IMG/VR virus record: IMGVR_UViG_2061766007_000288
Origin: an uncultured virus (IMG/VR IMGVR_UViG_2061766007_000288)
Lineage: Duplodnaviria; Heunggongvirae; Uroviricota; Caudoviricetes
Length of the DNA: 43,006 bases
Strand: one strand, 5' to 3'
Part shown: positions 845 through 8,489 of the stretch, one piece after another
Numbering within the stretch: the stretch's first letter is position 1
Layout: the number at the start of each line of letters is the position of its first letter
Notes under the pieces: model-generated
The model's database searches: none
Seen by the model: the letters and a program-made list of their open reading frames with translations, nothing else
Told to the model about the DNA's origin: nothing
Made by a program: the position numbers and the translations under genes

Positions 845-1185
845 GAAGGGCCGTTGTCGGGGCAAGAACTAACCCATTGTGAGTGGGTGAGAGGAGCCCC
901 GGCGCTGGCCCTTTTGGGGAACCCGAACTTAATCGGGTAATGCAGGGATTTCTCCCTGTGGGTGGTCATCGACAATGTTAGGAAGGCTTGTCGTGCCCGC
1001 AGCACTGTCCCTACCCATCAGGACTGTTTAACCACAAGCGGCAGAGCGGGGGACTTGACCGTACATCCCAGGGTGCCATGACCTTCCTAACGTAGTTCAG
1101 CGGTTTTGCCGCATCACCGAGTCTAATCAACTATGAAATCAAAGTTGCCTCCAATTTCACCAGGTTTCCCCGTTGGGTAGTTGAT
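845..1185 (-). mobile_element. Non-autonomous IS200/IS605 (IscB-family) element carrying only the omega-RNA and a terminal hairpin
   Basis: Omega-RNA scaffold followed by long hairpin 846-913; no iscB or tnpA ORF. Confidence 0.55.
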
Positions 1186-1266: not shown

Positions 1267-1341
1267 TGCCGACGGCCAGGTTCGAACTGGCATGTGTCCG
1301 CTTAGAAGGCGGATGAACTAAATCCATTATTCTACGCCGGC
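1267..1341 (-). tRNA. tRNA-Arg(TCT)
   Basis: Cloverleaf, loop CTTCTAA. Confidence 0.9.
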
Positions 1342-1348
1342 TGAAAGA

Positions 1349-1678
1349 CTAGGCCTTTGCCGGTCTCAACACGAACTGATGCCTGGAATCCGCCCAGACA
1401 GTGGAAGGGGACGTGCCGCTGTAACCGCGGATGTCCACCGTGGAATGTCCGTCGGAGTAGGTGAATACATCGGTGGTGCCATGCTGATTGACGGCGCCAT
1501 CGGCGAAAAGGGTGAAGCCGAACTCGGAAGGGCCACCTGCGACCTCGCCGCCCTGGCCCCTGAGCCATTCCTTGGCGGCATCGAAATCGCCACCGGTCGC
1601 TTCCAGGGCCTGCTTACAGAGCAACATGCTCACCTGGGTCGCCTTGCGCAATTCGTTTATCTGTGCCACCGTAACCAT
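1349..1678 (-). CDS. EF-Ts N-terminal-domain protein fused to an unknown C-terminal domain
   Basis: VTVAQINELRKATQVSMLLCKQALEATGGDFDAAKEWLR resembles the EF-Ts N-domain; AAAGGA RBS. Confidence 0.8.
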   Translation of the reverse strand: MVTVAQINELRKATQVSMLLCKQALEATGGDFDAAKEWLRGQGGEVAGGPSEFGFTLFADGAVNQHGTTDVFTYSDGHSTVDIRGYSGTSPSTVWADSRHQFVLRPAKA

Positions 1679-1723
1679 AATGTATCCTTTGTTTAATAAT
1701 AGTGCGACATTCCGGATGACGTA

Positions 1724-1798
1724 GGGTATCAGACAAGACTTGAACTTGCAACGGCTGGTTCCACAAACCAGGGCTCCACCGATTGAGCTACTGACACC
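1724..1798 (-). tRNA. tRNA-His(GTG)
   Basis: Cloverleaf, loop TTGTGGA. Confidence 0.9.
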
Positions 1799-1804
1799 AT
1801 GTAG

Positions 1805-1889
1805 AAGAGAGTACAGGATTCGAACCTGTGGGCCCGAAGACCGTCACGTTAGCACCGTGATGCAATAAGCCAGACTCTGCCAACTCTCC
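1805..1889 (-). tRNA. tRNA-Ser(GCT)
   Basis: Long variable arm, loop GTGCTAA. Confidence 0.85.
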
Positions 1890-1893
1890 ATAA

Positions 1894-1966
1894 CGCCTAC
1901 TGAGTGGTTCGAACACCCGACCCCCTGATTACGAAACAGGCGCTCTTCCAACTGAGCTAAGTAGGC
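1894..1966 (-). tRNA. tRNA-Thr(CGT)
   Basis: Cloverleaf, loop TTCGTAA. Confidence 0.9.
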
Positions 1967-1973
1967 AATTTAA

Positions 1974-2046
1974 TCAGCGTGAGTGGGAACGATCCACCGA
2001 CCTCATGCTCCCGAAGCATGCGCTCTACCAGCTGAGCTACACACTG
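1974..2046 (-). tRNA. tRNA-Pro(CGG)
   Basis: Loop TTCGGGA; T-loop ATCG. Confidence 0.88.
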
Positions 2047-2052
2047 ATTTAG

Positions 2053-2134
2053 CGGAAGCGGAGGGACTCGAACCCCCAAATCTTTCGACCGGCAGATTTC
2101 AAGTCTGCTCCACCACCAGTTGTGGGACGCTTCC
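2053..2134 (-). tRNA. tRNA-Ser(TGA)
   Basis: Loop CTTGAAA, long variable arm. Confidence 0.88.
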
Positions 2135-2138
2135 ATAG

Positions 2139-2225
2139 CGGAAGCAGCAGGACTTGAACCTACATGAGGAACTTCCTCACCACCGGGTTCGAGCCGGGGG
2201 CCTTACCAATTAGGTCTATGCTTCC
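2139..2225 (-). tRNA. tRNA-Ser(CGA)
   Basis: Loop CTCGAAC, long variable arm. Confidence 0.88.
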
Positions 2226-2233
2226 AAAGTTCG

Positions 2234-2320
2234 CGGAAATGGGAGGGCTCGAACCTCCATGCAGCTTTCGCCACCACGCTCCTTTCCAAGGAGGGCCAAT
2301 ACCAGTTATGGGACATTTCC
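2234..2320 (-). tRNA. tRNA-Ser(GGA)
   Basis: Loop TTGGAAA, long variable arm. Confidence 0.88.
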
Positions 2321-2325
2321 AAAAA

Positions 2326-2398
2326 TGCCAGGTGTGAGAGTCGAACTCACTTTCTCGGGGTTTCAGTCCGGTCCATTCCCACGATTGGATGCCCTGGC
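2326..2398 (-). tRNA. Atypical tRNA-Phe(GAA), possibly pseudo
   Basis: Acceptor and T arm intact, loop CTGAAAC, weak anticodon stem, C8. Confidence 0.6.
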
Positions 2399-2405
2399 GA
2401 GATTT

Positions 2406-3224
2406 TTATTTATATACACCAATTAAATTTCTATCCGGCTTAAATGATTGTTTGCTTACAGAACACGACGAAAAGATTGGTATAAATTTATGAAAAATAA
2501 CACGCATACGACTTCTTGCTCTATTTTTACGACGAGAAAAGTCTGACAATGAATTACAATCGCTACTATGATACTCATCCCACAATTCACGGGCATGCTG
2601 TATTGACTGTTCAGCCTTTTCGTGCTGATGAATCATGGGTTGTTTGCGTTTTGGATTTGTTAAAAATTTGGGTGGCCGACATAACCCATTTCCCTTGTAT
2701 AAATATAAAATTGATTGTGTTTGACCATTATATACATACCTCCCAGGAACCCAATGATGGTCATCCGGCTGCTGTGCAAATAATTTTGACTCGCCGGTAG
2801 AATAATTGGTGTACCATTTGTTGCCATAATTTGAATTATTGCTCCCGCGTTGCAATGATGAAGTCATTTTTCCAATAATCCTAGCATATCTTGTACGCAA
2901 ATGTTCGTATGCCCTAGCAAATATATACCGTTCATGAAATTCGCCCGTCGCTCGCATATTCCAAAATGCGCATACCATTTTATTGTGTTCCTGTGTTCCA
3001 GCAGGATAGATTTTAGTCAATAACCAATGACATATAAAGTGCTCACGGGCAGTTAGCAACGCCCTATTAGCAATAACATCCAAACCACCCAAGGAGCGAG
3101 GTAATATATGATGTTCTTCAAAATAATGCCCATTGCGTTTTTGCTGTCGCCGATCATGATATTCGGCCTTTGCACGCAATACAATACTTGCATATATTTT
3201 ACAATAATCCATGTTACTTCCCAT
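2406..3224 (-). CDS. HNH homing endonuclease
   Basis: EEHHILPRSLGG...N...LTAREHFICHWLL motif; AT-rich insert within tRNA array. Confidence 0.85.
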   Translation of the reverse strand: MGSNMDYCKIYASIVLRAKAEYHDRRQQKRNGHYFEEHHILPRSLGGLDVIANRALLTAREHFICHWLLTKIYPAGTQEHNKMVCAFWNMRATGEFHERYIFARAYEHLRTRYARIIGKMTSSLQRGSNNSNYGNKWYTNYSTGESKLFAQQPDDHHWVPGRYVYNGQTQSILYLYKGNGLCRPPKFLTNPKRKQPMIHQHEKAEQSIQHARELWDEYHSSDCNSLSDFSRRKNRARSRMRVIFHKFIPIFSSCSVSKQSFKPDRNLIGVYK

Positions 3225-3231
3225 TTAATAG

Positions 3232-3315
3232 AGCACTTAGCAGGACTCGGACCTGCGAAGGGATTACCCAGCAGATTTGCAGTCTGCTTCCTTTGCCGCT
3301 CGGATTCATAAGTGC
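3232..3315 (-). tRNA. Atypical tRNA-Cys(GCA) with long variable arm
   Basis: Loop CTGCAAA, U73, variable hairpin GGG-TAAT-CCC. Confidence 0.8.
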
Positions 3316-3319
3316 ATTT

Positions 3320-3619
3320 TTAATAATCCATTACAAAAAGTGGTTCGGCCTTATTCAACTTGTTCAGCCGTTCAATCAGCATCTCGATCGCTTGTCTAGC
3401 TGTGCCATGCGGCAAAAACAAATTCTTTTCATATTCATCCAGTGGTTTTGCATTATCCGACCATGAAAATAATGAAGCAACACCATTACGGGGAGTGTAC
3501 TCGATGCCACGGAAGTAATCATCAAACCCGTCACACTTTTCACAATCAGTCGATGCTATTAGATGATAGACTGCGCCAGAACTATATTCTACACGAAACG
3601 CTATGCTTTCCGATATCAT
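3320..3619 (-). CDS. Hypothetical protein (99 aa) within tRNA array
   Basis: GGAGGA RBS, MISESIAFRVEYSSG...; fills gap between tRNAs. Confidence 0.7.
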   Translation of the reverse strand: MISESIAFRVEYSSGAVYHLIASTDCEKCDGFDDYFRGIEYTPRNGVASLFSWSDNAKPLDEYEKNLFLPHGTARQAIEMLIERLNKLNKAEPLFVMDY

Positions 3620-3653
3620 AATTCCTCCTGGAATTCCACAGCGTAAAACTATA

Positions 3654-3737
3654 TCCCGAGGACAGGACTCGAACCTGCACGCCCTTCCGGGCACCTGCTC
3701 CTAAGGCAGGCGCGTCTACCAATTCCGCCACCTCGGG
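3654..3737 (-). tRNA. tRNA-Leu(TAG)
   Basis: Loop CTTAGGA, long arm. Confidence 0.92.
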
Positions 3738-3740
3738 GAA

Positions 3741-3813
3741 TTGGGCTGGCTGGACTTGAACCAACAACATCAAGACTCAAAATCTTGCGTGCTACCAATT
3801 GCACCACGGCCCA
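3741..3813 (-). tRNA. tRNA-Gln(TTG)
   Basis: Loop TTTTGAG. Confidence 0.9.
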
Positions 3814-3817
3814 ATAG

Positions 3818-3890
3818 TAGCCCCTCCGAGGCTCGAACTCGGGTGCCGGGATTGAGAATCCCGTGACTTAAACCACTGGTCTAAAGGGCC
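3818..3890 (-). tRNA. tRNA-Glu(CTC)
   Basis: Loop TTCTCAA. Confidence 0.9.
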
Positions 3891-3895
3891 ATAAG

Positions 3896-3979
3896 TCGGC
3901 ACAGAGGGAATCGAACCCTCACGACCTTTCGGCCATCAGAACCTGAATCTGACGAGGCTACCAGTTACTCCACATGCCG
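3896..3979 (-). tRNA. tRNA-Leu(CAG)
   Basis: Loop TTCAGGT, long arm. Confidence 0.9.
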
Positions 3980-3983
3980 TTAG

Positions 3984-4068
3984 TCGCTCAAGTGGGAGTC
4001 GAACCCACATGCCCTTTCGGACAGCGCATTTTGAGTGCGCCGCGTATCACCAATTCCGCCACAGAGCG
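3984..4068 (-). tRNA. tRNA-Leu(CAA)
   Basis: Loop CTCAAAA, long arm. Confidence 0.9.
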
Positions 4069-4076
4069 ATAAATAG

Positions 4077-4147
4077 AGCGCCTATCCGGTCACGATCCGG
4101 AACCAACTGCTTGGAGGGCAGTGATGCAGCCATTACACCATAGGCGC
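4077..4147 (-). tRNA. tRNA-Gly(TCC)
   Basis: Loop CCTCCAA (C33); T-loop ATCG. Confidence 0.85.
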
Positions 4148-4151
4148 GTAA

Positions 4152-4228
4152 TGCGGGCAGCGGGACTCGAACCCGCGACCCATAGATTAAAAGTCTATTG
4201 CTCTAAAAACCGACTGAGCTATACCCGC
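4152..4228 (-). tRNA. tRNA-Lys(TTT)
   Basis: Loop CTTTTAA. Confidence 0.92.
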
Positions 4229-4265
4229 GAAGTGCAGTTGGAAGAGCAATGGCCAACTGCTACCA

Positions 4266-4298
4266 TCATAATCGGGTGCGTTTCAAAATCTTTTTCAT
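4266..4298 (-). CDS. Minigene MKKILKRTRL
   Basis: AAGGAG RBS; positional homologue at 5861-5884. Confidence 0.5.
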   Translation of the reverse strand: MKKILKRTRL

Positions 4299-4314
4299 TG
4301 TTTTTACTCCTTAG

Positions 4315-4387
4315 TCGCCAGAGTGGGACTCGAACCCACAGATGACCGGGTTTAAGCCAGTTGTCTCTGCCATTCGACTACCTGGCG
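4315..4387 (-). tRNA. tRNA with TAA anticodon (Leu) and short variable loop
   Basis: Loop CTTAAAC, 5-nt variable loop. Confidence 0.8.
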
Positions 4388-4400
4388 TTGGTTTGCTTAG

Positions 4401-4483
4401 TCTCGATGGCTGGACTTGAACCATGCACTCTGTTACGAACCAGCCCCTCAAGCTGGCGGGTCTACCAATTCCCCCACATCGAG
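4401..4483 (-). tRNA. tRNA-Leu(GAG)
   Basis: Loop TTGAGGG. Confidence 0.9.
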
Positions 4484-4487
4484 ATAG

Positions 4488-4563
4488 TTGCCCGTGATGG
4501 ATTTGGACCACCGTGAGAATCCCGCGTTCAGAGCGCGGCGCCTTACCACTTGGCTAACGGGCA
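4488..4563 (-). tRNA. tRNA-Gln(CTG)
   Basis: Loop CTCTGAA; T-loop TCC. Confidence 0.85.
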
Positions 4564-4566
4564 ATA

Positions 4567-4639
4567 AGCGGCATACGAGGATCGGACTCGTGGCCTCAAC
4601 CATGGCAAGGTTGCGCTCTCCCAGCTGAGCTAATGCCGC
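4567..4639 (-). tRNA. tRNA-Gly(GCC)
   Basis: Loop TTGCCAT. Confidence 0.9.
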
Positions 4640-4653
4640 ATAATAAATTGTAG

Positions 4654-4739
4654 TGCCGGTTGATGGATTCGGACCACCGAAAGTTCGTACGAACGGGAGG
4701 GTTACAGCCTCCAGCCATTGACCACTAGGCGAAACCGGC
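4654..4739 (-). tRNA. tRNA-Tyr(GTA)
   Basis: Loop CTGTAAC, long arm. Confidence 0.88.
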
Positions 4740-4743
4740 ATAG

Positions 4744-4816
4744 CTCCACCTCCTGGACTCGAACCAGGGACCATGCGATTAACAGTCGCACGCTCTACCA
4801 ACTGAGCTAAGGTGGA
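4744..4816 (-). tRNA. tRNA-Asn(GTT)
   Basis: Loop CTGTTAA. Confidence 0.93.
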
Positions 4817-4827
4817 ATAAAGAATAG

Positions 4828-4916
4828 TGGGTTGGGTAGGAGTCGAACCTACAATGTTTACCCAAAGGGCCCAGATTTACAGTCTGGTGCGACACCGCCA
4901 TCGTCGCGGCCAACCC
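4828..4916 (-). tRNA. tRNA-Tyr(GTA), atypical D arm
   Basis: Loop CTGTAAA; C8; 5-bp D stem. Confidence 0.83.
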
Positions 4917-4928
4917 ATAATTTGTTAG

Positions 4929-5002
4929 CAGGGACAGAGAGATTCGAACTCCCGACACGCGGTTTTGGAGACCGCCGTTCTACCGGACTGAACTACATCC
5001 CT
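4929..5002 (-). tRNA. tRNA-Trp(CCA)
   Basis: Loop CTCCAAA. Confidence 0.92.
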
Positions 5003-5021
5003 ATAATTTCAAAGTCGATAA

Positions 5022-5095
5022 CGGGACCAACGGGGGTCGAACCCGTGATTTCCAGCGTGACAAGCTGGTGTCCTAGCCAACTAGACGATGGTCCC
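5022..5095 (-). tRNA. tRNA-Asp(GTC)
   Basis: Loop TTGTCAC. Confidence 0.92.
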
Positions 5096-5099
5096 ATAG

Positions 5100-5174
5100 T
5101 TGCGGAGGAAGGATTTGAACCTTCGACCAACGGATTATGATTCCGCTGCTCTGACCGGGCTGAGCTACACCGCA
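5100..5174 (-). tRNA. tRNA with CAT anticodon (Met; initiator/elongator/Ile2 not resolved)
   Basis: Loop ATCATAA. Confidence 0.85.
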
Positions 5175-5186
5175 ATAATTTGTTCG

Positions 5187-5262
5187 TGCACCATCAAGGA
5201 CTCGAACCTTGGACCCGATGCTTAAGAGGCAACTGCTCTGGAACCAACTGAGCTAATGATGC
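5187..5262 (-). tRNA. tRNA-Lys(CTT)
   Basis: Loop CTCTTAA. Confidence 0.9.
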
Positions 5263-5266
5263 ATAG

Positions 5267-5339
5267 TGGCGCCACCGGGATTCGAACCCGAGTTCCAGGA
5301 ATGAAAATCCTGTGTCCTTGGCCTCTAGACGATAGCGCC
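5267..5339 (-). tRNA. tRNA-Glu(TTC)
   Basis: Loop TTTTCAT. Confidence 0.9.
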
Positions 5340-5494
5340 GTNNNNNNNNNNAAAACTTTACTTGACATCCCTTGATACTGAGTCTTTGATTATGGTGAGT
5401 GACCCAATGGTTCCTCAATGTCTCACGCGGACCTCACGGTTTACTTCCCCTACAATGCCAAGTTTCACATCGGGAAACACATGACCAGCCTTAG

Positions 5495-5579
5495 TCCCGC
5501 AAGCCGGGATCGAACCGGCACGCATATTCCAGCACCGGATTTTGAGGCCGGCGTGTCTACCAAATTCCACCACAGCGGG
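5495..5579 (-). tRNA. tRNA-Leu(CAA)
   Basis: Loop CTCAAAA, long arm (second variant). Confidence 0.9.
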
Positions 5580-5586
5580 ATAATAG

Positions 5587-5671
5587 TCGGCACAGAGGGA
5601 TTCGAACCCATCACGTACAAACGTACACTGCGCCCTGAACGCAGCGCGGCTACCAGTTACGCCACATGCCG
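5587..5671 (-). tRNA. tRNA-Leu(CAG)
   Basis: Loop TTCAGGG, long arm. Confidence 0.88.
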
Positions 5672-5680
5672 ATAAGTTAA

Positions 5681-5751
5681 AGCGCCTATCCGGGGTCGAA
5701 CCGGAACCAACTGCTTGGAGGGCAGTGATGCAGCCAATACACCATAGGCGC
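5681..5751 (-). tRNA. tRNA-Gly(TCC)
   Basis: Loop CCTCCAA (C33). Confidence 0.87.
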
Positions 5752-5755
5752 ATAA

Positions 5756-5828
5756 TGCGGGCGACGAGTTTCGAACTCGCAGCCCCCGGATTAAAAGTCC
5801 GGTGCTCGACCAGTTGAGCTTCGCCCGC
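5756..5828 (-). tRNA. tRNA-Lys(TTT)
   Basis: Loop CTTTTAA; A8. Confidence 0.88.
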
Positions 5829-5860
5829 AGGCTGTCGCAACTGGACGGCAGTTGCCACCT

Positions 5861-5884
5861 TTATAATCGTTTCTGTTTCTTCAT
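5861..5884 (-). CDS. Minigene MKKQKRL
   Basis: AGGAG RBS; positional homologue of 4266-4298. Confidence 0.5.
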   Translation of the reverse strand: MKKQKRL

Positions 5885-5899
5885 AGTTGCATTCTCCTA

Positions 5900-5985
5900 T
5901 CGGCGATATGGGACTCGAACCCATATGCACATTTCGTGCTTCGGATTTTAAGTCCGAATTGTCTTTCCAGTTCCAGCAATCGCCG
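5900..5985 (-). tRNA. tRNA-Leu(TAA)
   Basis: Loop CTTAAAA, long arm. Confidence 0.87.
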
Positions 5986-5998
5986 GATTGTTGTTTAG

Positions 5999-6084
5999 TC
6001 TCGATGGCTGGACTCGAACCATGCACGCATATTTCAGCACCAGCCCCTCAAGCTGGCGGGTCTACCAAATTTCCCCACATCGAG
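5999..6084 (-). tRNA. tRNA-Leu(GAG)
   Basis: Loop TTGAGGG. Confidence 0.9.
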
Positions 6085-6088
6085 ATAG

Positions 6089-6150
6089 TTGCCCGTGATG
6101 GATTTGGACCACCGTGAGAATCNNNNNNNNNNGGACTTGGCTAACGGGCA
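6089..6150 (-). tRNA. tRNA-Gln(CTG) interrupted by assembly gap
   Basis: Ends match 4488-4563; anticodon lies in the N-run. Confidence 0.7.
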
Positions 6151-6153
6151 ATA

Positions 6154-6226
6154 AGCGGCATACGAGGTTCGAACTCGTGACCTCAACCATGGCAAGGTTG
6201 CGCTCTACCAACTGAGCTAATGCCGC
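6154..6226 (-). tRNA. tRNA-Gly(GCC)
   Basis: Loop TTGCCAT. Confidence 0.92.
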
Positions 6227-6240
6227 ATAATAAATTGTAG

Positions 6241-6326
6241 TGCCGGGTGATGGATTCGAACCACCGAAAGTTCGCGAGAACGGGAGGGTTACGGCCTCCA
6301 GCCATTGGCCACTAGGCGAACCCGGC
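6241..6326 (-). tRNA. tRNA-Tyr(GTA)
   Basis: Loop CCGTAAC (C33), long arm. Confidence 0.85.
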
Positions 6327-6330
6327 ATAG

Positions 6331-6403
6331 CTCCACCTCCTGGATTCGAACCAGGAACCTGACGGTTAACAGCCGCCTGCTCTACCAGTTGAGCTAAGGT
6401 GGA
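6331..6403 (-). tRNA. tRNA-Asn(GTT)
   Basis: Loop CTGTTAA. Confidence 0.92.
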
Positions 6404-6414
6404 ATAAAGAATAG

Positions 6415-6503
6415 TGGGTTGGGTAGGATTCGGACCTACAATGTTGACCCTAAGGGACCGGATTTACAGTCCGGCGCGACACCACCATCGCCGCAGCCAA
6501 CCC
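6415..6503 (-). tRNA. tRNA-Tyr(GTA), atypical D arm
   Basis: Loop CTGTAAA; homologue of 4828-4916. Confidence 0.83.
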
Positions 6504-6516
6504 ATAGAATTTTTCG

Positions 6517-6589
6517 CAGGGACTGAGAGATTCGGACTCCCGACATGCAGTTTTGGAGACTGCCGTTCTTCCAGCTGAACTAAATCCCT
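6517..6589 (-). tRNA. tRNA-Trp(CCA)
   Basis: Loop CTCCAAA. Confidence 0.9.
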
Positions 6590-6596
6590 ATATTCG

Positions 6597-6671
6597 TACT
6601 CGAAGAGGGAGTCGAACCCCCGACCCACTGCTTGTAAGGCAGTCGCTCTGAACCAACTGAGCTACACGAGT
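6597..6671 (-). tRNA. tRNA-Val(TAC)
   Basis: Loop CTTACAA. Confidence 0.9.
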
Positions 6672-6675
6672 ATAA

Positions 6676-6749
6676 CGAGAGCGGCGGGGTTCGAACCCGC
6701 GAATGGCGGTTAGACAGACCGCTGTGTTGAGCCTCTTCACCACGCCCCC
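6676..6749 (-). tRNA. tRNA-Asp(GTC)
   Basis: Loop CTGTCTA, G73. Confidence 0.87.
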
Positions 6750-6761
6750 AAAATGTTTAAC

Positions 6762-6858
6762 GCAGCCCCCGGTGCTTTAGGTTCTTATGTTGTTTCGGCG
6801 CTTTGTACCGACCGACCTTAACTTTGTCGGAGCCGGCATTCTTTAACTGCCGGGCTGC
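6762..6858 (-). ncRNA. Unassigned multibranch structured RNA in tRNA array
   Basis: Closing stem GCAGCC/GGCTGC enclosing three hairpins. Confidence 0.5.
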
Positions 6859-6862
6859 ATCG

Positions 6863-6937
6863 TTGCGGAAGAAGGATTTGAACCTTCGACCAACGGATTA
6901 TGATTCCGCTGCTCTGACCGGGCTGAGCTACACCGCA
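6863..6937 (-). tRNA. tRNA with CAT anticodon (Met)
   Basis: Near-identical to 5100-5174. Confidence 0.85.
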
Positions 6938-6949
6938 ATAATTTGTTCG

Positions 6950-7021
6950 TGCTCCTACCTGGGCTCGAACCAGGATCCACAGATTAAGAGTCTGCTCGTC
7001 TAGCCATTGACATATAGAAGC
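6950..7021 (-). tRNA. tRNA-Lys(CTT)
   Basis: Loop CTCTTAA. Confidence 0.88.
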
Positions 7022-7025
7022 ATAG

Positions 7026-7099
7026 TCCTCACCCCTGAACTCGAATCAGGAACCTCTACCTTATCAGAGTAGCTATCTAACCAATTGATATAGATGAGG
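7026..7099 (-). tRNA. tRNA-Ile(GAT)
   Basis: Loop CTGATAA. Confidence 0.88.
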
Positions 7100-7100
7100 A

Positions 7101-7158
7101 TGGTGGAGCACGATGCAGCCTAGGCTGCTTCCCGGCAAAGCCGGATGGATACTGCCCC
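7101..7158 (-). ncRNA. 58-nt tRNA-like mini-RNA with alanine identity elements
   Basis: GGGGCA/TGCTCC stem with G3-U70, A73 and encoded CCA; two internal hairpins. Confidence 0.55.
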
Positions 7159-7171
7159 AAAATCCATTTAG

Positions 7172-7245
7172 TAGGACCTCCGGGTGTCGATCCCGGTTCC
7201 CCGCCGTGAAAGGGCGATGAACTAGCCAGCGTATTCTAAGGTCCC
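7172..7245 (-). tRNA. tRNA-Glu(TTC)
   Basis: Loop CTTTCAC; T-loop ATCG. Confidence 0.87.
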
Positions 7246-7252
7246 AAATTCG

Positions 7253-7330
7253 TAGTCACTGAGAGATTCGAACTCCCGACCCCCGCGTTCGTAGCACGGT
7301 GCTCTTAAATTCCATCTGAGCTAAGTGACC
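7253..7330 (-). tRNA. tRNA-Arg(ACG)
   Basis: Loop CTACGAA. Confidence 0.9.
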
Positions 7331-7345
7331 ATATTTTAAAAACTA

Positions 7346-8116
7346 TTATTTCCCTTCATATTTGCCGTATTTTGATTCCCATTTCATAATACGCTGCTGC
7401 AATTCTTCGAGAGTAATCGATGATTTCTTATTCTTTGAAACATTATCCACATACAACATTAACTGGCAATTTGCTGGATGTGCAATTATTTCGGGCAACA
7501 CTTTATTATCAAACCCAGATTTAACACTGTACATGTGATCCCGTGTGACACCGGAAGGATTATTCTTCTTATTTTTGGGACTGTACCATCCATATTGCTT
7601 AACCAGGCTAAAATCAAACTCATCCGGATAATTTTGCAATGCAAATTTGAACATACATGCTTGTCTATACTGCCTATAAGTACCACGAAATTCATCATTC
7701 ACGACATGTTGATTAAACCGGTGTCTGCACTCAGCAGAGCAGAAACGCCTATGACTGGAATGACCGATTGAAATTAGCTTTCCACAACATTTACAAATTA
7801 TTGGGGGCAATGCAATCCGTTGTCCATTCACAAACTTCTTGCCAGTCAGAGTAGCACTAACCTTTGCCTTAGTTTCATCGGTACGGATGCGAGAGTTTGC
7901 ACAACTACGCGAACAGAACCTAGGTAACCTATTCTTATCCAAGTCAATTTGCTTTATCATTTTATGAAACGGTTGACGGCAATGTTCACATATTGCAGTA
8001 CATTCAACCAAACGTGCATTTCGCTCTCCTATACGCCGCCACGTTTCATGTGATTTTTCCCAACCAAGTTTGATATTCCGTCGGTTTGCCGCCAATTTCT
8101 TTTCACTAATAGCCAT
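7346..8116 (-). CDS. Putative HNH-type homing endonuclease with Zn-ribbon and NUMOD3-like motifs
   Basis: CxxC...FCSxxC repeats, RTDETKAKVS motif, C-terminal TRDH...HPANCQLM...N; AT-rich. Confidence 0.75.
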   Translation of the reverse strand: MAISEKKLAANRRNIKLGWEKSHETWRRIGERNARLVECTAICEHCRQPFHKMIKQIDLDKNRLPRFCSRSCANSRIRTDETKAKVSATLTGKKFVNGQRIALPPIICKCCGKLISIGHSSHRRFCSAECRHRFNQHVVNDEFRGTYRQYRQACMFKFALQNYPDEFDFSLVKQYGWYSPKNKKNNPSGVTRDHMYSVKSGFDNKVLPEIIAHPANCQLMLYVDNVSKNKKSSITLEELQQRIMKWESKYGKYEGK

Positions 8117-8202
8117 TACACTCTCCAACATCTTCCATTATAATATAGCTTATACTTGACAGCAAATGTAGATGGTTCGATATAAAAATCTATCCAAAAT
8201 AG

Positions 8203-8274
8203 TGGAACCGGTGGAAATCGAATCCACCCACCCGGCTTGCAAGGCCAGGTCGCCTCCTTGGAACATGCGGCCCC
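8203..8274 (-). tRNA. tRNA-Ala(TGC)
   Basis: Loop CTTGCAA, G3-U70, C8, weak D stem. Confidence 0.85.
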
Positions 8275-8284
8275 AAATGTTTAC

Positions 8285-8357
8285 TGGACCCTACGAGGAA
8301 CGATCTCGTCACACCTACCTTGCGAAGGTAGGTCGCCACCAAGGAACATGAGAGCCC
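8285..8357 (-). tRNA. tRNA-Ala(CGC)
   Basis: Loop TTCGCAA, G3-U70, C8. Confidence 0.85.
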
Positions 8358-8416
8358 AAATTTTAAAGTCATCCGAAATGTCAATCTGCTAACCGGCTTC
8401 ACGAGCCGGTCGTTAG

Positions 8417-8489
8417 TGGAACCCTAGGAAATCGAATCCTACCCATCGATCCTGCCAGGATCAATCGCCTCCTTGGAACATGGGGCCCC
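8417..8489 (-). tRNA. tRNA-Ala(GGC)
   Basis: Loop CTGGCAG, G3-U70, C8. Confidence 0.83.

Follow-up and report, generated by a model that had tools for sequence, protein, structure and literature searches.

What is a 58-nt unit with the acceptor end of an alanine tRNA, a ready-encoded CCA and no part that could read a codon doing among the tRNA genes of a phage, and is it kept because it can be charged with alanine? The question is raised by an uncultured virus (IMG/VR record IMGVR_UViG_2061766007_000288), of which the whole stretch analysed, 43,006 nucleotides, is called the window below. An earlier note, made from the letters alone, described an armless mini-RNA with a complete alanine identity set, and proposed that it serves as a decoy, a non-ribosomal alanine donor or a tmRNA-like rescue factor.

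The unit and its fold

The elements of the slot are the following:
7101..7158, minus strand: the 58-nt mini-RNA unit (RNA position p = 7159 - coordinate), from its sequence, its fold and its match to model R1
7153..7158, minus strand: 5' strand of the acceptor-like stem (positions 1-6), with G3 at 7156 (A in haplotype iii)
7105..7110, minus strand: 3' strand of the acceptor-like stem (positions 49-54), with the U that pairs with G3 at 7107
7101..7104, minus strand: A73-like discriminator (7104) and encoded CCA (7103-7101), identical in 9/9 copies
7145..7152, minus strand: unpaired 8-nt linker (positions 7-14), starting G-U-A, from the fold and direct reading
7132..7144, minus strand: hairpin 1 (positions 15-27), 5 bp with a UUU loop, invariant, from the fold
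7112..7131, minus strand: hairpin 2 (positions 28-47), 7 pairs with an A/A mismatch and a CUAG loop, from the fold
7159..7170, minus strand: 12-nt leader between tRNA-Glu and the unit, identical in 9/9 copies, with U at -1
7100..7100, minus strand: single T between CCA and the first base of tRNA-Ile, by direct reading
7171..7245, minus strand: tRNA-Glu(ttc), the upstream neighbour, without encoded CCA, trailer CTA (ARAGORN, Rfam)
7025..7099, minus strand: tRNA-Ile(gat), the downstream neighbour, without encoded CCA, trailer CTA (ARAGORN, Rfam)

The unit is the reverse complement of 7101-7158, and the anatomy given in the earlier note (an armless 58-nt unit in the slot between tRNA-Glu and tRNA-Ile, a 6-bp acceptor-like stem with G3-U70, A73 and CCA, and two hairpins with neither a T loop nor a 7-nt anticodon loop) was borne out by sequence and fold. 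In the minimum-energy fold, a three-way junction, the closing stem has 6 bp (G1-C, G2-C, G3.U, G4-C, C5-G, A6-U); hairpin 2 has 5 bp closed by a 4-nt loop plus two more pairs past the A/A mismatch, and adjoins the acceptor 3' strand in the manner of a T arm, while the loop of hairpin 1 is 3 nt long. The unit is non-decoding, having neither an anticodon loop nor any other codon-reading part. Direct reading of the linker finds U8-A9, the same letters that the array tRNAs carry after their acceptor stems. The minus-strand fold reaches -26.4 kcal/mol (z = -2.16; 6/200 shuffles were equally stable), and the plus strand of the unit folds at chance level (z = -0.94). In the precursor, AUGG of the leader is able to pair with CCAU at the 3' end of the unit; this 3' end would be set by the 5' processing site of tRNA-Ile.

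Fit to the tRNA array and candidate identities

ARAGORN called 47 tRNA genes in the window, all on the minus strand like the unit, and 0/47 encode CCA, as the earlier note had said of the neighbouring genes. The triplet after the discriminator is CTA in 26, CGA in 7 and some other triplet in 14, usually followed by T and then by the next gene. The 3' end of the unit, A-CCA-T, fits this array rule (N73-C-N-A-T-next gene) with the middle base C as the sole deviation; it is an encoded NCCA one base ahead of the next tRNA, in an array whose tRNAs lack CCA. The base at -1 is T (U) in 35 of the 47 window tRNAs, and likewise in the unit. The same CTA/CGA rule was found in seven array stretches of the related records G001, G003, G011, G015, G023 and G031, where, among 214 tRNAs, just one CCA ends within 0-2 nt of a following tRNA, that of the G001 copy of the unit; no further CCA-ended unit of this kind was found in the arrays of these six relatives. 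The bare descriptor of a 6-bp stem followed by N and CCA matched the window 95 times, against 70.6 +/- 8.4 times in shuffles, so that this motif is common and not unusual alone; the unit stands above chance because of its place, its strand, its fit to the spacing rules of the array and its conservation. The encoded CCA differs by one transition from the array-wide CTA trailer, and could be neutral.

We compared the unit with known RNA classes and with other kinds of element. It was left uncalled by ARAGORN, and a scan of the slot against Rfam at E <= 10 returned no family for it, with the four neighbouring tRNAs scoring 40-62 bits. It is not a tRNA, given no match to RF00005 at E <= 10, no ARAGORN call and loops of only 3 and 4 nt; nor is it a tmRNA, since no tmRNA family matched it at E <= 10 (against 106 bits for the phage's real tmRNA), it lacks both T arm and T loop, and its alanine-type acceptor is broken to A3-U70 in 2/9 contigs. 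A 15-codon open reading frame runs from the ATG of the leader to a TAG in the loop of hairpin 2; no ribosome-binding site is visible upstream, and of the variants described below one is synonymous in this frame, one changes Ala to Thr and one lies outside it; a coding role was rejected. The palindrome of hairpin 2 was rejected as a conserved DNA site, being broken in the G.U haplotype, and a promoter or terminator role was rejected as well, no promoter-like or terminator-like site being found in or beside the unit on the minus strand. Judged by title and abstract, none of the papers returned by literature searches describes a phage gene for a CCA-ended minihelix.

Bacterial AlaRS is described as reading four acceptor-stem determinants, A73, G2-C71, G3.U70 and G4-C69 (PMC9976931). 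The window copy carries all four in a regular helix, as a minihelix-Ala does, so that its alanine identity set is complete for bacteria, as the earlier note had held, and charging of this copy is biochemically plausible.

Homologues, haplotypes and variation

With the D arm of tRNA-Ile as anchor, a metagenome scan found 9 loci. In eight of them the unit immediately precedes tRNA-Ile and has the same 12-nt leader; the ninth is an unrelated array. These 8 loci and the window make up the 9 contigs of the copy set, in which L009 is the same contig as the record G001. A single copy, with one full-length R1 match (92-93 bits), is found in the window, in each of the loci and in the whole G001 record. 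Three haplotypes are found:
Haplotype i: pair 3:70 is G3.U70 and the variable hairpin-2 pair is G-C (window, L006, L007, L013)
Haplotype ii: pair 3:70 is G3.U70 and the variable hairpin-2 pair is G.U (L008, L010, L011)
Haplotype iii: pair 3:70 is A3-U70 and the variable hairpin-2 pair is A-U (L005 and L009, i.e., G001)

The haplotypes differ at three sites only, and every difference keeps base pairing, with standard pairs in 54/54 pair cells. One hairpin-2 pair (7125/7118) has changed on both sides, between G-C and A-U via a G.U intermediate; since this intermediate is valid only in minus-strand RNA, it supports a minus-strand RNA fold. Under a null of three random transitions, all three fall in stems and stay compatible with p = 0.041, and one pair is hit on both sides and stays compatible with p = 0.022. 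The covariation shuffle control reached the observed value in 340/500 shuffles, and is uninformative with only three sequences; the covariation evidence is thin because all copies are at least 95% identical. Judged from these alignments, support for a selected fold is real but modest.

The earlier note also took it that homologues would keep both G3-U70 and ACCA. The second half holds, ACCA being kept in 9/9 copies; the first does not, since G3.U70 is found in 7/9 and A3-U70 in 2/9 (L005, L009), so that the identity pair 3:70 is not conserved among the homologues. The unit has three variable sites in 58, and the adjacent tRNA-Ile one in 75. In four of the unit-bearing loci the upstream tRNA-Glu is an unrelated allele, with leader and unit unchanged; the block leader-unit-Ile-Lys-Met is nearly unchanged while the alleles of tRNA-Arg, Asp and Val also vary.

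Comparison of L005-L013 with window positions 6500-7350 shows the arrays to be mosaics, in which otherwise near-identical arrays have exchanged tRNA-Arg, Glu, Asp, Val and Tyr genes for unrelated alleles. G001 and L005, the lineage with the A3-U70 mini-RNA, carry an additional tRNA-Ala(tgc) immediately behind tRNA-Ile.

Distribution and origin

The nearest record to the window is G001, a 203-kb virus contig, whose terminase has relatives in the thousands, the largest of their contigs reaching 466 kb. The runs that contain the stretch come from bovine and sheep gut, other gut and bioreactor metagenomes (11 studies). These habitats and the terminase relatives point to a giant rumen-type phage.

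A search of 37 related virus records with model R1 found no true copy of the unit; many of these records are fragments, in which absence is weak evidence, and two weak matches (E 0.06 and 0.5) were rejected, neither lying near a tRNA. The informative absences are the syntenic Glu-Ile junctions without the unit in G003 (terminase 79% identical; 3-nt spacer) and G011 (terminase 64% identical; 7-nt spacer). A 19-mer scan of the GTDB species-representative bacterial genomes gave 27 loci, all of them chance matches scoring 13-31 bits with R1 from the shared word (against 92-93 bits for true copies), and no copy of the unit. Exact-word scans of IMG/VR with parts of the unit matched only G001, a scan with the anticodon arm of tRNA-Ile added only an unrelated phage, and protein-anchored scans with the neighbouring ORFs found nothing.

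Presence and absence were also seen in sequencing runs. An identical unit with G3.U70 is present in a 30.7-kb DNA contig of run X5. A 217-nt contig from X18, a sheep RNA library, has it as well and spans tRNA-Lys, tRNA-Ile, the unit and the leader; in X20, a size-fractionated RNA library, the unit is covered in part only. In the RNA library of run X15, two contigs match the window in tRNA-Ile up to 7101 and in tRNA-Glu from 7169 and then diverge from it; their loose ends overlap by 14 letters, which gives a Glu-9 nt-Ile junction without the unit. There appears, then, to be a near-identical haplotype in X15 with the same Glu and Ile genes that lacks the unit. The contigs from these RNA libraries (X15, X18, X20) are of low depth and speak to presence only, their ends and uncovered parts being silent on processing, and a contig that bridges several genes could stem from a precursor or from DNA. 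Because the unit appears absent from the X15 haplotype and is absent from the syntenic junctions of the relatives, it is dispensable.

No parent tRNA was detected: the best local score among 194 array tRNAs was 22, against 20.2 +/- 2.0 for shuffles. Three more specific sources were rejected, namely kinship of hairpin 1 with the anticodon arm of the G001 tRNA-Ala(tgc), a resemblance below chance level; a copy of a neighbour's acceptor stem, the stems of Glu, unit and Ile all being different; and a deletion derivative of the phage tmRNA, whose acceptor strands differ. Judged by these sequence comparisons, the unit is a recent, lineage-restricted, dispensable cassette for which no source could be traced.

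Proposed role and alternative explanations

We give first place, with a probability of about 0.45, to a tentative reading: the unit would be a gene-like cassette of recent origin, its product a small structured RNA mimicking the acceptor end of tRNA, and alanylation would probably not be the selected function. That the unit is gene-like and co-transcribed is suggested by its fit to the array grammar, its strand-specific fold, its pair-preserving variation and its retention across mosaic arrays. It would be transcribed within the minus-strand transcript of the array. RNase P would cut before G1, given the U at -1, the acceptor-like helix and the 3' RCCA, and would cut again at the first base of tRNA-Ile, one nucleotide past the CCA, leaving an end ...ACCA-U that a single exonuclease trimming step would turn into a ready-made CCA end. 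The mini-RNA would in this way be independent of the CCA-adding enzyme, which every true tRNA of the array, lacking CCA, would require. The mature 58-nt RNA, with its acceptor helix stacked on the T-arm-like hairpin 2 and ending in ACCA, may act through the acceptor-CCA end, mimicking tRNA or competing with it for proteins that recognise tRNA 3' ends.

RNase P is reported to process non-tRNA substrates, including phage regulatory RNAs (PMC4919922). At the level of sequence the unit has 6 bp abutting a further 7 pairs, ACCA and the U at -1; the acceptor helix on hairpin 2, the RCCA and the U at -1 would together supply what a minimal RNase P substrate needs. The lack of a T loop that could aid substrate binding weighs against maturation by RNase P.

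On established biochemistry, haplotypes i and ii are likely to be charged in vitro by AlaRS. The change from G3.U70 to A3-U70 is reported to abolish alanylation by the insect and human enzymes (PMC9976931). Since haplotype iii has A3-U70 with the rest of the unit intact, charging with alanine is probably incidental, or dispensable, rather than what is selected for; a change from G.U to A-U is also what selection on helix stability alone would permit.

The reading ranked second is that the unit is a functionless remnant or filler, either a decayed tRNA gene or an imported fragment, whose hairpins are tolerated and leave the processing of the neighbours undisturbed. We regard this as possible and on the whole unlikely. 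The very narrow distribution and the presence/absence polymorphism are what it predicts, as is the denser variation (3/58, against 1/75 in tRNA-Ile); the CCA is one mutation away from the CTA of the array, U8-A9 past the stem hints at tRNA ancestry, and cassettes come and go in mosaic arrays of this kind. A remnant does not lead one to expect, however, that all three changes keep pairs, with a two-step compensatory change among them, or that leader and unit stay unchanged across arrays with different flanking tRNA alleles, and the 194 array tRNAs hold no detectable parent.

Third in rank comes the view of the earlier note that the RNA is kept because it is alanine-charged, serving as a decoy that AlaRS or EF-Tu would bind, as a donor of alanine outside the ribosome or as a rescue factor, a view we consider improbable. 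Minihelices are reportedly charged by AlaRS, a result ascribed to Francklyn and Schimmel in 1989. The window copy has every bacterial acceptor-stem determinant, the encoded CCA is invariant, and G3.U70 is present in 7/9 contigs and in the X5 and X18 contigs besides. In its most developed form, which we hold to be no more probable, this view makes the unit a natural alanine-accepting minihelix of a giant rumen phage, its CCA ready-made, that would be charged by the host AlaRS and serve as a non-decoding alanyl-RNA or an acceptor-end decoy; its targets might be, for example, host factors, defence toxins that act on tRNA 3' ends, or trans-translation, with which it might compete, and the A3-U70 haplotype would then be a loss-of-charging variant. 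Against selection for charging stand that same haplotype (A3-U70 in 2/9 copies with the remainder intact, a change that abolishes alanylation in the cited systems) and the dispensability of the unit; selection on helix stability would, besides, be enough to permit the step from G.U to A-U. The lineage, moreover, already has three to four normal tRNA-Ala genes and a full tmRNA, and no phage AlaRS was found in the 5 records searched.

An antisense role would make the unit an RNA matured by RNase P like C4 of P1/P7, in which the stem and the CCA are a mere processing handle and the loops and linker pair with a target; we think this very unlikely. Phage regulatory RNAs matured by RNase P do provide a precedent (PMC4919922), and AUGGAU in the leader of the unit is the complement of the linker's 6-nt AUCCAU. 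The loops are merely 3 and 4 nt long, however, and a search of the 43-kb window in both orientations, the unit itself and the self-complement of hairpin 2 set aside, gave nothing better than 11 nt with E = 0.4, which is chance level.

Rescue by a tmRNA-like molecule, as suggested in the earlier note, finds little support, the unit having no T arm and no tmRNA model match in a lineage with a full tmRNA, and its only in-frame "tag-like" ending turning Ala to Thr in the A3 haplotype. The least probable reading of all, which we would barely entertain, is that of a CDS-less analogue of tmRNA, consisting of the tRNA-like domain (TLD) only, that would titrate SmpB away and shut off trans-translation in the host, on the model proposed for mycobacteriophage DS6A: it draws on the alanine-type acceptor end with ACCA, on a TLD-only phage tmRNA that is on record, with a similar molecule described as inhibiting tmRNA "whether or not chargeable" (PMC4131195), an inhibition that would tolerate A3-U70, and on the precedent of CDS-less plastid forms of ~65 bp (PMC11915505), but the unit lacks a T arm and T loop, matches no Rfam tmRNA at E <= 10 and has acceptor strands unlike those of the phage's own tmRNA, and the full, tagged tmRNA of the clade would also be hit by a blocker of trans-translation.

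Comparison with known systems

Among known systems, the unit would function most like a minihelix. With the synthetic minihelix-Ala and microhelix-Ala it shares G3.U70, G2-C71, G4-C69, A73, a CCA helix stacked on a second helix and the lack of an anticodon. It differs from the minihelix in being natural and phage-encoded, in having an extra hairpin and an 8-nt linker in place of the D and anticodon arms, in the 4-nt loop of its T-like hairpin, and in a natural haplotype with A3-U70. The DS6A TLD-only and ~65-bp plastid tmRNAs are, as reported, also non-decoding, alanine-type tRNA-like RNAs without a tag message, and that of DS6A is phage-borne as well; the unit, in contrast, is 58 nt long without a T arm, T loop or tmRNA model match, and its lineage also has a normal tmRNA.

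RNAC and RNAD of T4 are located in the tRNA region of that phage and have tRNA-like ends. They are described as stable RNAs "of yet unknown functions" (PMC9697503), and are likened to the unit by description, as small non-tRNA RNAs among phage tRNA genes; the T4 RNAs are much longer. With pre-C4 RNA of P1/P7 and pre-4.5S RNA the unit has in common an RCCA-ended helix able to recruit RNase P, and C4 is a phage RNA too (PMC4919922); unlike for C4, no target complementarity was found for the unit.

Should the RNA be produced and matured in this way, the laboratory minihelix would have a natural counterpart, phages would be deploying bare tRNA acceptor ends as tools of their own, and the unit would point to a class of small phage RNAs, so far undescribed, that make use of tRNA processing. 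With G3.U70 and A3-U70 both occurring in nature, the haplotypes lend themselves to a test of how important alanine charging is. Were the unit only a remnant, it would still document how cassettes enter and leave mosaic phage tRNA arrays.

Other elements of the array and its relatives

Full-length tmRNA genes are present in G001 (L119:1501-1861; 106 bits, tag ANNAYACRMAA) and in G003 (L118:1501-1859; 112 bits, tag ANDAFACRMAA), and each array has three or four ordinary tRNA-Ala genes.

In the array at 1267-8489 of the window, C-T-A or C-G-A follows the discriminator in 33/47 tRNAs, and CCA never does; the rule extends to relatives with terminase identity down to ~53% (array stretches L122 and L124-L129), and the phage tmRNA likewise ends with CGA. 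This looks like a clade-wide 3'-trailer rule, and is perhaps tied to a CCA-adding enzyme of the phage's own: a protein of that family was found in 4 of the 5 records searched (G001, G003, G011 and G009), with which the CCA-less tRNA genes of the lineage fit.

A second non-tRNA unit of ~100 nt lies at 6751-6861 (minus strand), in the slot between tRNA-Met and tRNA-Asp. It begins right past the CGAT trailer of tRNA-Met; a 7-bp stem closes it around three inner hairpins, it lacks a T loop, and Rfam does not match it. The six letters of its closing inverted repeat recur in hairpin 2 of the 58-nt unit. It is conserved in 8 loci, where five sites vary, and is missing from G003 and G011; in L006 and L013 it is followed by an insertion of ~870 nt.

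The window has two runs of ten N (scaffold gaps), one at 5342-5351 and one inside 6085-6153 that breaks tRNA-Gln(ctg). Similar array blocks at 4076-5339 and 5494-7245 flank the first gap, whereas L007 and L008 have just one block; misassembly or the joining of two strains may account for the apparent duplication. A HEARO RNA (RF02033, 118 bits) borders the tRNA array on its low-coordinate side (958-1185, minus strand), and homing-endonuclease-like ORFs (phrog_655; HNH-related phrogs) lie within the array at 2406-3224 and 7346-8131 (minus strand), the latter splitting tRNA-Ala(ggc) off from the rest of the array.

The tRNA slots of relatives also hold tRNA-like units of 120-200 nt, at L124:3366-3492 (G003), L125:7249-7428 (reverse strand, G011) and L125:6634-6847. 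They received no ARAGORN call and no Rfam match at E <= 0.01, and neither the window nor G001 has a homologue of them. Two combine G3.U70, A73 and a canonical T arm with long irregular inserts; units of 120 nt and 160 nt were seen in G003 and G011.
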